Shown here: piece after piece, positions 39,715 through 54,128 of the stretch
Numbering within the stretch: position 1 is the first letter of the stretch
How the letters are laid out: each line of letters opens with the position of its first letter
Translations under genes and position numbers: made by a program
IMG/VR virus record: IMGVR_UViG_3300027889_000037
Span: 1 to 59,659 of that record
Direction: 5' to 3' (one strand)
Length of the DNA stretch: 59,659 nucleotides
From: a virus
Lineage: Duplodnaviria; Caudoviricetes
The notes under the pieces: generated by a model
Told to the model about the DNA's origin: nothing
The model's database searches: none
What the model saw: only the letters and a program-made list of their open reading frames with translations

Positions 39715-39903
39715 TCATTCGGCAACAACGGTTTCAAGAGCGCGTAAAGCATATCGCGCGTTTATTTCGCGCGTCGAAGCCTCGTTCACGGCTTTGTTTG
39801 CTGCCTGCAATTCCGCGATCACCTTAGATTGGTATTCGACCATGGCGGCATATGAGCGCTCGGCACATTCTAGTTCCAGTCTGGCGGCTTCAAGTTTTGT
39901 CAT
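39715..39903 (-). CDS. Coiled-coil hypothetical protein
   Basis: TGATG coupling to recombinase gene. Confidence 0.55.
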   Translation of the reverse strand: MTKLEAARLELECAERSYAAMVEYQSKVIAELQAANKAVNEASTREINARYALRALETVVAE

Positions 39904-40901
39904 CACGCCACCTTCTCGCTGCTCTTTTCCATCCGCATCCGCTGCACGGTATGGGTGTTCTCCCGGCTGGCGCGGCTGTAGTCCATTGTCTGCGATACGT
40001 CGCTGTGTGTAGCGGCATCGCGGACATGCGCAGCCTGGGCGCCCATGGCGATGGCTTCGCTGATCGCACCGGCCCGCGCGTCGCGGTTTTGCACATTCAA
40101 CGGCACGCCACACTCGGTCGCGATGATCCGCCATTCTTCGCGGAAGTCATCGGCTTTATATGGGAAGCCGGTGTATTCATCGATAATCACGGGGCCGCTC
40201 GCCGGCAGCAATAATCGATCGGCAGAGCATCCCGGCCACATATGCTCAAGCTCGGCCATGACCAGCGGCGCCAATGTCAGGTCCGGCTCGGATAGTTTCT
40301 TGCGCTTGCTCGTGACGTGATGGACGACAAAATCAGCGCCGATTTCTTCCCAGCGCAGACCCTTGAGCCACTTCATTGGACCTTTTCGCGGGTGCATCGA
40401 GCAAACGTCCGACAGGCCCGGTTCGCCAATCGGCAGCCATTCGCCGAGAACGTCCTTCTGCCGCCAAGTGCATTCAAATTGGAGGGCCTGTGCGAGCCCG
40501 ACCATCGGGAGGCGCGGGCGCGCGGCGTTGCAAATCGCGGTTGCTTGCTCGCGGGTGATGTGGACCGTTCGCGGCTTGCCGTTGGCGAAGCGGCCTTTGC
40601 TCAGTAGCAGCCCGAGGCGCTGGCAGGCTTCGTCATCGAGCGCGAAGAAGCCGAAGTTGGCGAGCGTGCGCAGCATCCCGATCAGCGCATGGCCCATCGA
40701 AACCTTCCGGCCGCCGTCGCTCCATTGCTGATGCCATTCGTAGATCGTCCGGCCCTTGATGGTCGCCACATCTACGTCGCCGTGGGCGCGCTCGATCTGT
40801 GTCATGAGCCGGACGTAGTATTGCCGCGTGCAGTATTCGAGCTTGGCGAAGTTCGATACTGGGTCGGTGCGGTAAGCGGACATGAGTTCATTGAGACGCA
40901 T
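39903..40901 (-). CDS. Tyrosine recombinase/integrase (no N-terminal arm-binding domain)
   Basis: R (CTWRQKD), K (TSKR), NRDARAG, ATHS, MDYSR catalytic-type residues. Confidence 0.8.
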   Translation of the reverse strand: MRLNELMSAYRTDPVSNFAKLEYCTRQYYVRLMTQIERAHGDVDVATIKGRTIYEWHQQWSDGGRKVSMGHALIGMLRTLANFGFFALDDEACQRLGLLLSKGRFANGKPRTVHITREQATAICNAARPRLPMVGLAQALQFECTWRQKDVLGEWLPIGEPGLSDVCSMHPRKGPMKWLKGLRWEEIGADFVVHHVTSKRKKLSEPDLTLAPLVMAELEHMWPGCSADRLLLPASGPVIIDEYTGFPYKADDFREEWRIIATECGVPLNVQNRDARAGAISEAIAMGAQAAHVRDAATHSDVSQTMDYSRASRENTHTVQRMRMEKSSEKVA

Positions 40902-41079
40902 AACCAGCCCTCACAGTAGCTCGATTTTGTATGCGACCGCGACGCAGGCGGGGTAACTCTGCCATTGCCTCAGCCTTGGCAATGATCTTATCCAGTCGCG
41001 CCAGTTCGCGCTTTTCCTCTGGCGTTAGATACGCCCGCCAGTCGCGTGCATTGGTTTTTGCCCTGCGTAAATCGCTCAT
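40888..41079 (-). CDS. Small basic hypothetical protein (probably leaderless)
   Basis: No RBS; TTGACT-N17-CACGTT promoter places +1 near the ATG. Confidence 0.6.
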   Translation of the reverse strand: MSDLRRAKTNARDWRAYLTPEEKRELARLDKIIAKAEAMAELPRLRRGRIQNRATVRAGYASQ

Positions 41080-41154
41080 GTGAGTAACGTGAACCTCGCT
41101 AGAGGATAAGTCAATAGGGGCTTGCAAATTATTTTGAGGGGTGTATATTGCTCT

Positions 41155-41293
41155 GATCGATCTACCCCTGCCGGTGGTCACGGCAATACCCAGGAGGCGG
41201 CCATGAAGTAACCCCATCCCTTTTCAGAATCTTGCAAGGTTTTGGAGTTTTAATCGGGCCGCTCGGAATGACCACCGGGCGGCCCTTGGTTTT
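41155..41293 (+). ncRNA. Putative small RNA carrying Met-Lys-stop minigene (41203-41211)
   Basis: TTGCAA-N16-TATATT promoter, 5-bp hairpin, AGGAGG, ATGAAGTAA, terminator 41256-41293; paralogous to 53398-53537. Confidence 0.65.
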
Positions 41294-41320
41294 GGCCGCT
41301 GCTACGCTCCCGACAGTACC

Positions 41321-41767
41321 TCAGTTAACCGCCAACTCCCACAGCGGCGGAAATAGATCGTCGGGTATGGCGAACATCCCCTGCTGGCCCCTATATGGAA
41401 TTGGCTCGGTCAGCAGATGAAAGTCGCTGCGCTCCCAAGCATAGCGGCCTTCCGAAAAATCTCCGCACTCGCGATCATCGTCATTCGCTGCTGTACACCC
41501 AAACAGTTCATGCACTGTCGGCTTGCAGGCAACGATCTTGACCGCGCCAATGATAGCGCCGCGCGGCAATTCCAGGCCCCAATGATTTCCCCAAATACCA
41601 TCACAGATTTCATCAAGGCGGTCGCCGCTGAAATCATCGATCCGGCGCTTGGCGGCATGAACGGCAAGCCATCCGCGATGCGAAGTGGGCCAGTGGCGCG
41701 TCTCATGGACTTTGGCGTCGGATAGCCAAAGCGACGCCCACGGTTGCCAGAGTGAAATTGCCTTCAT
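41321..41767 (-). CDS. ASCH domain protein
   Basis: MKAISLWQPWASL...K.HETRHW...RG.LAVHAA...PIPYRGQQG. Confidence 0.9.
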   Translation of the reverse strand: MKAISLWQPWASLWLSDAKVHETRHWPTSHRGWLAVHAAKRRIDDFSGDRLDEICDGIWGNHWGLELPRGAIIGAVKIVACKPTVHELFGCTAANDDDRECGDFSEGRYAWERSDFHLLTEPIPYRGQQGMFAIPDDLFPPLWELAVN

Positions 41768-41803: not shown

Positions 41804-42862
41804 TTAAGCCGCAGCCTCTTTACGTGCGGCGATCATGCCGCGCAGTTCTTGTTTACTCTCTGGGGACATCGAATAGCCGCGACCCCAATGGGTCTCAATT
41901 TGCAACCCATGCGGTTCAATCTTTGCTCTGATTTTGCAAACGAACACGTCCACAATTTTAATCTCTGGCGCATCATCCGCCCGATCCGAATAAAGGGCAG
42001 TCAAGATCGCCTCTTTGGACATGATGTCGCGCGAGAGCAACGCGGACACGACACGTTCCTCGCTTGCAGTCAGCTTTAGTTCCGGCGGCAACAGTTCTTT
42101 GCCGTTCATTGTTTCTTCAAGCATTCTAACACGTTCGCGCAATTCTTCATTTTCTTCCTCTACCAGAGAGCGACGCAAGGCAGGATCATGCTTGAAGCGT
42201 CCGAAACTCTCCCACGATTCGTTGATGGCCTCTGCCATATATTTGATGTGTTCGCCTAGCAGAGCAGAAGCCGAAACGGCTTCTTCATTGCTGTATTTTT
42301 GAACCCACTCGACAAGCTCACCAAGCGCACCATTTATTGGAATAGGCGCTGCATCGGCCAAGTCTGCGCGAAACTCGGCCACCTGATTGAAGATCGGAAC
42401 CAAGAACGACTTTGCGTTTTGAAACGCTGCAAGATGAGAATACTTGACCCGCCACGCGTCCACTTCGCGGAGTGCAGCCAAGATTTCATCGTTCGGCGAG
42501 CGGACAATTTCAATTGACCGCTCGTCCTCGTCCCAACCGGCCGCGTCGCCTTCGTGCTGCTTAACCGCAACACGGTAGGCTCGTGTCGCATATTCCTTGC
42601 CTTCGCTGACAAAGCGCACGCGCACAGCGTTTATCATGTGGTTGGCTTGGCCGACGCGATATTGATGGGCGGCTTTTTTATCGTCCCACTCAAAATAGCC
42701 GCGTAGCGGGCTGTTGGCGGAGTGGGCAGCCTGCACAACAGCTTCCGCCGTCACATCGCCATCTGTCGCAATCTCTTGGAGCACAGGGCCAATGGCCCGC
42801 GCATCGTCGTTGGAGAACGACGATCCAGTTAGGGCAAAGTATTCTTTGATCGATATAGTCAT
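41804..42862 (-). CDS. Two-domain protein: N-terminal phage domain (SPL..YFEWDD..AA..YR) fused to OmpR/CtrA-like winged-helix DNA-binding domain
   Basis: C-terminal PEIKIVDVFVCKIRAKI...IETHWGRGY closely resembles the CtrA C-terminus. Confidence 0.8.
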   Translation of the reverse strand: MTISIKEYFALTGSSFSNDDARAIGPVLQEIATDGDVTAEAVVQAAHSANSPLRGYFEWDDKKAAHQYRVGQANHMINAVRVRFVSEGKEYATRAYRVAVKQHEGDAAGWDEDERSIEIVRSPNDEILAALREVDAWRVKYSHLAAFQNAKSFLVPIFNQVAEFRADLADAAPIPINGALGELVEWVQKYSNEEAVSASALLGEHIKYMAEAINESWESFGRFKHDPALRRSLVEEENEELRERVRMLEETMNGKELLPPELKLTASEERVVSALLSRDIMSKEAILTALYSDRADDAPEIKIVDVFVCKIRAKIEPHGLQIETHWGRGYSMSPESKQELRGMIAARKEAAA

Positions 42863-53068: not shown

Positions 53069-53320
53069 TCACTCTCCCCAATTAAACTGTTTCCCGTTCC
53101 GCAACTGGGCCTCGACGCCCGCACAGGTGTTGCGGTAGCGTTGCCAGACCGCGGGCTTGATCTTGCCAGACTTCTGCTTTCCCGCAATGTGCTTGGCGGT
53201 GCGGGGCGGGGTGAGCCCTTGTTCGGCCCACCAGATCGTCACAGCGCTATACCCGCTCAGTTTTGCCAACTCGGCCACCGACAGATTGAGAGATTCGCGC
53301 CATTGCTTCGCCTTGCTCAT
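53069..53320 (-). CDS. XRE/Cro-like HTH regulator (probably leaderless)
   Basis: WRESLNLSVAELAKLSGYSAVTIWWAEQG; TTGACA-N17-TAGAAA places +1 near the ATG. Confidence 0.8.
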   Translation of the reverse strand: MSKAKQWRESLNLSVAELAKLSGYSAVTIWWAEQGLTPPRTAKHIAGKQKSGKIKPAVWQRYRNTCAGVEAQLRNGKQFNWGE

Positions 53321-53397
53321 GGCTTACTTTCTACAGTCCAATAACAACCCTGTCAAGTATGCCTTGACTTTTATTTTTAGGAGCGTAGCCTAGTCGA

Positions 53398-53537
53398 GCA
53401 CAGTGCAAACCCCAAGCGGATGAAAGCCGCTGACCCAGGAGGCCGCCATGGTCAACTAACCCAGTTTAATTAAACCGGACTTTTGTAGAACTGAAATCTT
53501 GTGTGGGCGCTGCGGACTTTCACCGCGGCGCCCTTTG
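53398..53537 (+). ncRNA. Putative small RNA carrying Met-Val-Asn-stop minigene (53448-53459)
   Basis: TTGACT-N16-TAGCCT promoter, 5-bp hairpin, AGGAGG, ATGGTCAACTAA, terminator 53505-53537. Confidence 0.65.
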
Positions 53538-53539
53538 CA

Positions 53540-53617
53540 TAAGAAAAGGCCCCAGACCGCCGCAGGGCGATCAGGGGCCAGTCACACTCGTAAGGGAGTA
53601 GTCATCACAGTTCGGAC
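53540..53617 (-). ncRNA. Possible ~75-nt small RNA
   Basis: TTGACC-N17-CAGTCT promoter (53652-53624); GGCCCC..GGGGCC-TTTT terminator; no credible ORF. Confidence 0.35.
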
Positions 53618-53795
53618 GGGCTGAGACTGTCGTAGGTTCTGGCCGGGGTCAAGCAAAACCTTGACGGATTTGCGATTTGGGCTGAGTATGAAAAACCCCG
53701 CCACGGGGGCGGGGCTGATCTGGTGAGCGGTTGAGGAAGGGCGGTCGCACCCCTGATTTAGCCGCACAGCCGAACTTTGTCAACAGGTTGTGCCC

Positions 53796-54128
53796 ATGTC
53801 CTTAACCGCGTTTCTCAATTCTAAAGAAGCTCTGGCCGCTACCGAACAAGCCCACATTGCCGATTCGGCGTGGTTCATTCGGCACCCAGATCGTAAATTT
53901 CACCTCCGCGAGCCTTTTGTTGGCGAGTTTCCCTTCAATATCACCCCGCCGCCCGGCATTCGGTGTGTTGTGGTCTCGCAAATCGCTACTGGCCACCGCT
54001 ACCGCCAGATTGTCTATGTGACCAAATTGCTCGATACCGAGGATATTGCCCGCCTCGCCGCCGAAACCGCCTTTAGCTCGATCGTGCTGGTCGATACGCA
54101 AGACCCTCCCTCGAACGCGCGGCACTAA
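53796..54128 (+). CDS. Hypothetical protein
   Basis: DSAWFIRHPDRKFHLR...EF; upstream of primase. Confidence 0.65.
   Translation: MSLTAFLNSKEALAATEQAHIADSAWFIRHPDRKFHLREPFVGEFPFNITPPPGIRCVVVSQIATGHRYRQIVYVTKLLDTEDIARLAAETAFSSIVLVDTQDPPSNARH

Follow-up and report, generated by a model that had tools for sequence, protein, structure and literature searches.

A probable family of minigene RNAs with conserved ribosome initiation and termination signals in phage control regions

Introduction

What could a phage gain from an RNA built around an open reading frame (ORF) with a single sense codon between its start and stop codons? This question is raised by a locus in the 59,659-base virus record IMGVR_UViG_3300027889_000037 of IMG/VR (Caudoviricetes), which is estimated to be 92% complete and was analysed over its whole length (referred to here as the window). 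The unit at 41122-41295 on the plus strand, copy 1, which has a paralogue elsewhere in the record, is predicted to be an independently transcribed small RNA of about 140 nucleotides (nt). We consider it very probable that copy 1 is a conserved minigene RNA that engages ribosomes. Judged from sequence comparison, selection appears to act on the signals for immediate ribosome initiation and termination and not on the codons, the peptide or one particular tRNA, because the content of the ORF varies between the units compared and all three stop codons are used.

Results

Every element that the initial annotation had listed for copy 1 was recovered when the sequence was checked. The unit, all of whose parts are on the plus strand, opens with a promoter-like site, TTGCAA-16-TATATT (41122..41149), which has 9 of 12 consensus matches in the promoter scan and lies in a region that can be aligned with the equivalent regions of copy 2 and of a related viral-contig locus, L014. 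With the 5' end placed from the -10 box and the 3' end from the terminator tail, the predicted transcript of about 140 nt spans 41156..41295. In it, the motif ACCCC (41164-41168) is followed by a 5' hairpin, TGCCG-GTGGTCA-CGGCA (41169..41185), that ends 2 nt upstream of ACCCAGGAGG. The latter and the 5-nt spacer CGGCC occupy 41188..41202, with the consensus Shine-Dalgarno (SD) sequence at 41192-41197; together with the start codon they form the 18-nt stretch ACCCAGGAGGCGGCCATG (41188-41205), and folds leave the ACCCAGGAGG region largely unpaired or weakly paired. The mini-ORF ATG AAG TAA (41203..41211) runs on into TAACCC, as had been annotated, the whole reading ACCCAGGAGGCGGCC ATG AAG TAA CCC, and a 44-nt spacer separates it from the terminator hairpin. 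This spacer, or central tract (CCCCATCCCTTTTCAGAATCTTGCAAGGTTTTGGAGTTTTAATC, 41212..41255), consists of a C-rich stretch and then a predicted G-U-rich hairpin. The intrinsic terminator (41256..41295) has an 11-bp stem with 10 G-C pairs (41256-41285), an 8-nt loop and the tail TTGGTTTTGG, and is predicted by the terminator scan to be active on the plus strand only. The idea drawn from these elements in the annotation, of an RNA running from promoter to terminator around a mini-ORF with a strong SD, holds as a prediction.

The paralogue, copy 2 (53364..53540, +), has the same build: a promoter-like site, TTGACT-16-TAGCCT, a hairpin, AGCGG-ATGAAAG-CCGCT (53415-53431), the sequence ACCCAGGAGGCCGCCATG (53433-53450), the mini-ORF ATG GTC AAC TAA (53448-53459) in the context ACCCAGGAGGCCGCC ATG GTC AAC TAA CCC, and an 11-bp 3' hairpin, GGGCGCTGCGG-ACTTTCA-CCGCGGCGCCC (53505-53533), all on the plus strand. 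Taken singly, the parts of copy 1 are not significant; it is their combination that stands out. One site of the form AGGAGG-N3-9-ATG-NNN-TRR occurs in the window, and 11 of 100 shuffles contain at least one. For the wider pattern AGGAGG-N4-7-ATG-(0-2 codons)-stop, copies 1 and 2 are the only sites on both strands of the 59.7-kb record; the mean over 200 shuffles was 0.2 sites, and two or more arose in 5 of them.

The exact 18-mer ACCCAGGAGGCNGCCATG was found at 21 viral-contig loci, in 10 of which a stop codon follows within 0-3 codons. Bacterial genomes hold at least 120 matches to it, with a stop within 8 codons in 3 of the 120 among the matches listed. A metagenome scan added the loci L171, L173, L176 and L178. 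As the initial annotation had suggested, a covariance model was built (R1, from the six units copy 1, copy 2, L014, L019, L176 and L173), and it separated the family cleanly: both copies, L014/L171, L019, L176 and L173 score 70-112 bits (copy 1, 108 bits over 41163-41285; copy 2, 84 bits), and the next best locus at most 30 bits. The members from outside the training set are L171 (70 bits) and L288 (CAGGAGGTCGCC ATG AAG TAG), a diverged member that came from a search with a different pattern and reaches 28 bits (E 1.3e-5). Copies 1 and 2 both belong to what we define as type A, namely a 5' hairpin, ACCCAGGAGG-N5-AUG, 0-2 codons, UAACC, a spacer and a GC terminator.

Within this family the SD, the N5 spacing, the ATG and a stop codon are constant, and the ORF encodes nothing after its start (L019, L176, L173), K (copy 1 and L014, whose mini-ORFs ATG AAG TAA are identical) or VN (copy 2). 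The 5' hairpin persists despite changes of sequence (GCCG/CGGC; GCGG/CCGC in copy 2 and L019; GGCGA/TCGCC in L176; TTTGG/CCAAA in L173), and the terminator stem has compensating changes, in L014 and as two double changes between L019 and L176. The annotation had made its proposal depend on the conservation of SD, ATG and stop in homologous loci; these signals, along with the 5-nt spacing, are kept in homologous and syntenic loci while their surroundings change. By our reading of the alignment, the central tract is the best conserved part between copy 1 and L014, with 2 substitutions in about 50 nt; it shows no conservation between the two copies or across the family.

Convergent genes lie downstream of three of the five assessable units (copy 1, L014, L176), which suggests that the RNA itself matters, beyond any function as a leader; in L173 a same-strand gene follows the terminator. 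Among 24 loci compared by integrase synteny, the unit was present only in the L014 contig (= L038), and close relatives of the integrase carry other genes upstream. These relatives are without it, and the unit is predicted to be a mobile module. Synteny of the primase gene gave two loci, and synteny of the helix-turn-helix (HTH) gene that adjoins copy 2 gave one.

The same build was met in cultured phages. A BLAST search against GenBank phages gave a match in Caulobacter phage C1 and its relatives, in the unannotated spacer adjoining the portal gene, and we aligned four Bertelyvirus lineages (C1, BL47, CcrSC and CcrBL9), which are 76% identical in this region. C1 reads ACCCAGGAGGCGGTC ATG AAG TAA; BL47 has lost one A relative to C1 and reads ATG AAG TAG, the 1-nt deletion still leaving a stop; CcrSC and CcrBL9, in which the spacer and flank differ, read GCGCAGGAGG(C/T)TGAG ATG AAG TGA. 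All four lineages retain the SD with its spacing, the ATG, the AAG and a stop, even though spacer and flank differ and the stop codon is not always the same one. With the portal gene as an anchor, the spacer was then read in five more distant Dolichocephalovirinae, whose portal proteins are 42-46% identical at the N-terminus. Here the sequences are GGAGACCGGT ATG CTC AAG TAA in phiCbK, GGAGACCCAG ATG CTC AAG TAA in CcrBL10, GGAGACCGGT ATG AAG TAG in CcrRogue, ACCCAGGAGGTGCGAG ATG TTG CGT TGA with ACCCAGGAGG-N7 spacing in Brevundimonas phage Bajun, and GGAGGAGGTCGCC ATG TGA in Marchewka. Each of the five has a single site, oriented divergently from the portal gene, with a TTGAC-type promoter-like site before it and hairpins and a GC terminator with a U-run after it; shuffles of these regions contained any such site in 22-31 of 500 per region. 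All nine Dolichocephalovirinae genomes read thus have, divergent from the portal gene, an ORF of 0-2 sense codons behind a strong SD. After its start it encodes nothing, K, LK or LR, and it ends in any of the three stop codons; a same-strand gene follows the terminator in all nine, and none of the nine GenBank records has the unit annotated.

Further features of these phages were noted. The terminal repeats of C1, CcrSC and CcrBL9 (L185, L186, L187) contain a fully conserved AGGAGG-N5-ATG AAG TAG that lies 22 nt before the ATG of an early gene, with no terminator between them. This mini-ORF and the 26 nt after it are near-identical in the three phages, with one variable base just before the next ATG, and the coding sequence beyond has diverged; in CcrSC it stands behind one of 16 copies of the early promoter motif TGTTGAC-N15-19-GCGAGA. 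In the portal spacers of phiCbK, CcrRogue and CcrBL10 (L351:334-546(-), L352:325-536(-), L353:323-537(-)), the sequence ACCCAGG(G/A)(A/G), which is the SD context of the window, occupies the apical loop of the second hairpin, 3' of the mini-ORF, without an ATG behind it. Ahead of their terminator, these phiCbK-type units also have a CU-rich tract resembling an anti-SD and the conserved sequence (A/U)AGCAGCA, and Marchewka has ACCCAGAGG in a similar hairpin loop. The sequence CATGGTTAA, which we take to resemble a CtrA half-site, is repeated on both sides of the RNA unit in the portal spacers of the Caulobacter and Brevundimonas phages (L351-L355). The accessible text of the CtrA-phage paper does not mention the portal spacer (PMC9437464).

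Of 29 start-stops preceded by AGGAGGCNGCC in pattern searches of viral contigs, 12 lie in DNA free of ORFs (background, 7.7%), as do 13 of 65 strong-SD AAG-stops (background, 10.5%); some matches in these counts are redundant. A pattern search of five bacterial genomes gave a few start-stops in each. In the low-GC viral contigs L320, L323 and L337, CAGGAGG-N5-ATG AAG TAA/TAG lies in ORF-free DNA with a clean intrinsic terminator about 30-90 nt further on, and phages with hosts other than Alphaproteobacteria may have this build too.

Two other arrangements were seen among the loci collected. The L173 unit (L173:3900-4200(-)) sits within a row of co-directional genes, between two near-identical terminators (GGGCCGT...GGGCGGCCC TTTTTATGT), with no promoter-like site between these. 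A second, unrelated conserved block of about 150 nt, containing ACCCAGGAGGCCGCC ATG TAA (TAG in L127), is present in L015:2300-2520(-), L178, L234 and L127, the last in the genome of Novosphingobium guangzhouense. It is enclosed by the long-range pairing GATCTCCC...GGGAGAGATC and lies downstream of a cytosine methyltransferase-like C-terminus in L015 and L127 and of another gene in L178.

Both units of the window lie back-to-back with a small divergent gene. The genes on either side of copy 1 are on the minus strand, the one to the right being the last of a long replication operon that ends at 41321 without a terminator of its own. To the left, the -35 box of copy 1 adjoins the TTGACT of a 63-amino-acid (aa) ORF (40888..41079, -), which stands directly upstream of an integrase-like ORF (39903..40901, -). 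The initial annotation had described this neighbour as a probably leaderless gene upstream of an integrase. No SD precedes the ATG at 41079, so that the mRNA is probably leaderless, and the integrase-like ORF matches PHROG 1 (E 2.6e-7) and has relatives at 24 viral loci. The 63-aa ORF has no Pfam or PHROG match, and the integrase-like ORF no Pfam match. One gene upstream of the last gene of the minus-strand operon, a 352-aa protein (41804-42862, -) with a C-terminal winged-helix Trans_reg_C domain (Pfam E 2.8e-9) is a candidate regulator.

The gene divergent from copy 2 is an 83-aa HTH gene (53072..53320, -; Pfam HTH_31, E 4.2e-7), the first of the long minus-strand replication operon; its ATG comes 7 nt after TTGACA-17-TAGAAA, which makes it leaderless by position. 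Downstream of copy 2 are same-strand genes, at 53790-54128 and then a 796-aa primase/VapE gene. The back-to-back -35 boxes at copies 1 and 2 (41079-41122 and 53318-53370, both -) form a palindrome, GTCAAG-N5-CTTGAC in copy 2. This palindrome could be an operator shared by the RNA unit and the divergent regulator.

Searches for known RNAs gave no candidate for either unit. Rfam 15 had no match at the gathering threshold in the whole window, and the best E-values for both units at E <= 10 were 2 and 0.84, from unrelated families only. Ten related loci gave nothing but one tRNA elsewhere, two Caulobacter-phage loci gave nothing relevant, and a tRNA/tmRNA search of the window found none. No description of these units was found in the accessible article text of the literature, the phiCbK genome and CtrA-phage papers included, supplementary files being outside the search.

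Several other candidates were tried and rejected. A minus-strand ORF of 109 aa (40888-41217) is open in copy 1 only; as we read them, the frames of copy 2 and L014 over the 18-mer differ from it and stop before the neighbouring gene. A cobalamin riboswitch in L011/L012, considered for a likeness to the B12 box, was not called by Rfam. Antiterminator pairing between the SD spacer and a terminator arm has no covariation, the variable base in GGCNGCC not covarying with the arm in our reading. Finally, ACCTCAGT after the terminator, considered as an att core, is the end of a homologous convergent gene.

Discussion

Our favoured explanation overall, which we hold as a good possibility short of a probable one, is that copy 1 is a ribosome-gated minigene or start-stop small RNA, or leader, of the phage control regions. 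What these units have in common is that a ribosome is predicted to be captured close to the 5' end of an early transcript or of one from a control region. The core would consist of a 5' hairpin, an exposed consensus SD, an AUG 5 nt on, 0-2 sense codons and a stop, followed by a structured spacer and an intrinsic terminator, and the RNA would work through the bound ribosome. This ribosome might protect the 5' part of the RNA, might unmask a C- or CU-rich tract that would otherwise pair with the SD or, where genes follow, might alter passage through the terminator. As for the particular mode of action, we tentatively propose a ribosome-gated riboregulator, in which a bound 30S or 70S would set the fate or conformation of the RNA. 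Three hints point to it: the fold of copy 1 allows the SD to pair with the C-rich tract that directly follows the stop, with the mini-ORF in the intervening loop; the phiCbK-type units combine an anti-SD-like tract with an ACCCAGG loop; and the tract that follows the ORF is conserved between copy 1 and L014.

A number of results weigh against this explanation. The gating step and the pairing of the SD with the C-tract have no support from covariation in the alignments, and a scan of the phage for exact complements gave no target longer than 12 nt, with counts of 10-11-mers equal to those in shuffles. The fold of copy 1 is not above chance (z-score -0.98; -2.85 for copy 2), and the scans called one promoter in the window against a shuffle mean of 1.0 and two terminators against 1.7. 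Copy 2 has a weak promoter, with a poor -10 box (TAGCCT) and no call in the promoter scan, and its terminator tail, TTTGCATA, fails the T-run rule of the terminator scan. Most pattern matches in viral contigs are due to chance and lie inside genes (17 of 29 start-stops and 52 of 65 AAG-stops), and by our estimate the raw number of start-stop matches is about that expected of random sequence. The family is small: 25 phage records reached through relatives of the integrase and primase had five pattern matches, none with an in-frame stop as we read them, and R1 had no match in 151 sampled alphaproteobacterial genomes, an empty result that shows little. Because the range of ORF variation in the Dolichocephalovirinae matches that in the window family but R1 misses their units (no match at E <= 1 in the Caulobacter-phage loci L180, L182 and L183), we would place the two in the same class with common descent unproven, and their likeness may be convergence.

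Two kinds of bacterial RNA come close to this build. The start-stops located in E. coli by Ribo-RET are SD-like sequences with an AUG-stop that bind ribosomes and can only be regulatory; in the accessible part of that report they number 14 sites, out of frame inside genes, with a small effect on the host gene (bioRxiv 10.1101/520783). An exact AUG-stop with an SD is found in L019, L173, L176 and Marchewka, whereas copies 1 and 2 have one and two sense codons and so lack this feature, and the units described here, unlike those in the accessible account of E. coli, are separate and intergenic, with conserved hairpins and a terminator. The rreB/rreR small mRNAs of Alphaproteobacteria, as far as the available text describes them, are chromosomal and have a 17-nt SD and a 14-aa ORF; rreB binds the 30S subunit, and its start codon affects the stability of the transcript (PMC5711450). 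Our units share with rreB a length of about 150 nt, a relation to Alphaproteobacteria and a ribosome-binding site as their hallmark, and differ from it in being phage-borne, with a 6-nt consensus SD and 0-2 sense codons (PMC5711450). Complementarity of the rreB type to the 3' end of 16S rRNA (at least 16 nt) is absent, only AGGAGG pairing in a comparison by eye with the 16S end, which is a weak test.

The strongest rival, although an unlikely one, is a translation poison of the lambda bar or CreT kind: the RNA in bulk would tie up ribosomes, initiator tRNA, release or recycling factors, or fMet-Lys-tRNA through drop-off, and it would serve to shut off the host, to exclude other phages or to form an addiction pair with the divergent regulator. 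The consensus SD, the optimal 5-nt spacing, the AUG and the AAG second codon all fit a poison, as does the promoter that shares its -35 palindrome with a small regulator gene. So does the C that follows the stop in copy 1, copy 2, L014, L015, L019, L023, L173, L176 and L178, UAAC being a weak termination context in E. coli. The presence of two copies per phage, one of them beside the integrase, is also reminiscent of lambda, in which the minigenes barI and barII (AUG AUA UAA/UGA) lie within the pL transcript, one of the two near int/att, and are known through their lethality to pth-defective hosts; their last sense codon, AUA, is read by a scarce tRNA, which leads to starvation. The likeness to bar extends to the phage-borne SD, two-codon ORF and stop (ATG AAG TAA in copy 1) without peptide function. 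It does not extend to the promoter-like site and terminator that the units here have of their own, nor to the scarce tRNA, the sense codon here being common or absent.

CreT itself, in the accessible part of its description, is a toxin in which a strong SD and an AUG begin a mini-ORF, followed by a stable stem-loop that it requires; it acts as an RNA and not as a peptide, needs two consecutive rare codons (AGA or AUA) after the start, and lies beside the CRISPR-like creA and cas genes (PMC8501985). Copy 1 resembles what is described there in its AGGAGG-N5-ATG, its stable downstream stem-loop (41256-41285), the lack of a peptide role and a promoter under a neighbouring repressing element, which is putative here, but the units have 0-2 common codons (one, AAG, in copy 1), are phage-borne and stand beside an HTH or small regulator gene (PMC8501985). 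Within this phage AAG is used 313 times against 142 for AAA among 8711 codons, and GTC and AAC are also common; for this reason the rare-codon requirement of CreT finds no counterpart, the rare pair being absent, and starvation of the CreT type, for a rare tRNA, is not supported. The sequestration of tRNA-Lys that the initial annotation had proposed is unlikely, because the sense codons differ between members (none; AAG; GTC AAC; CTC AAG; TTG CGT) and many of these are bare start-stops. Codons that are common, differing or absent leave a poison with no single tRNA target. Moreover, virulent phages, which depend on translation by the host, have units of this build too, and it also precedes phage genes as a 5' leader. 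A mere ribosome trap would have no use for the tract downstream of the ORF, where conservation between copy 1 and L014 is strongest.

We regard as quite unlikely that copy 1 is an ordinary base-pairing RNA in which the SD and mini-ORF serve only as a 5' stabiliser. It would then act either in trans, its C-rich central tract binding host or phage ribosome-binding sites, or as a cis-antisense RNA of the OOP or sib type against minus-strand read-through into the 63-aa and integrase genes. The central tract is indeed what has changed least between copy 1 and L014, and a unit with its own promoter and terminator at the prophage end beside the integrase is like the moron-type small RNAs of prophages. 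Read-through from the terminator-less minus-strand operon that ends at 41321 would be fully complementary to copy 1, and ribosome binding near the 5' end is a known stabiliser of RNA, as at the STAB-SD of Bacillus. Against such pairing stand the lack of complementarity beyond 12 nt elsewhere in the phage, described above, and the lack of conservation of the central tract between the two copies or family-wide. No known transcript lies opposite copy 2 or the Caulobacter-phage units, and an in-frame stop and an AUG at constant distance, both of which are kept, would be dispensable in a stabiliser.

Less likely again is a terminated leader or attenuator with signal-dependent read-through, like the lambda 6S RNA at tR'; copy 1 would then be either the orphaned remnant of such a leader or a stump left by a gene start that has decayed. 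Small terminated transcripts are familiar from phage control regions (lambda 6S/tR', OOP, P4 CI and HK022 put, with putL and putR giving two per genome), and our units resemble them in being terminated, in their location and in sometimes having two copies, but differ in the SD-AUG-stop core; to our knowledge none of these RNAs is built around a conserved one. The same-strand genes after copy 2, L173 and all nine Dolichocephalovirinae units fit an attenuator, and so does the terminal-repeat mini-ORF of C1, CcrSC and CcrBL9 in front of its early gene. Copy 1, L014 and L176, however, face convergent genes and still keep the whole unit with compensating changes, no conserved antiterminator pairing was found, and the stop is kept in three forms, unlike what is expected of a decaying stump. 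Very improbable, finally, is a site at the level of DNA, with the 18-mer serving as an operator or as the arm site of a recombinase, or an arrangement due purely to chance: the 18-mer does occur at both control regions, about 35-50 bp downstream of promoter-like sites, and the single parts are not significant alone, but there are phages with close integrase relatives that are without it, the in-frame stop and N5 spacing are kept as the flanks change, and the minus-strand frames across it, in our reading, differ between the copies and end before the neighbouring genes.

Beyond the ribosome-gated RNA that we favour for copy 1, it is conceivable, though doubtful, that the temperate soil phages and the Dolichocephalovirinae examined here (9/9, phiCbK included) share an undescribed class of riboregulators that act only by capturing a ribosome on an ORF of 0-2 codons. 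In such a class, the captured ribosome might unmask an anti-SD-like tract, or might bias the initiation machinery, for example toward the leaderless mRNAs of the back-to-back regulators; a large share of the mRNAs of Caulobacter crescentus is leaderless. It might also act as a drag on a short, strongly transcribed unit and in this way drive the divergent promoter via supercoiling. If true, ribosome capture of this kind would provide a physiological counterpart for the unexplained bar minigenes of lambda.

Minigenes have been known mainly as a curiosity, in lambda bar, or as the CRISPR-guarding CreT toxins, and bacterial start-stops only inside genes, with small effects. The comparative record assembled here suggests that phages maintain small transcription units in their own right, with SD-AUG-(0-2 codons)-stop at the core, through swaps among the three stop codons and a deletion that recreates the stop. 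It also points to a blind spot of annotation, since the units are unannotated in the records read for cultured Caulobacter and Brevundimonas phages. In phiCbK, CcrRogue and their relatives they occupy the same fixed position, and with the good genetics of the host, C. crescentus, the purpose of a phage minigene would become directly testable.

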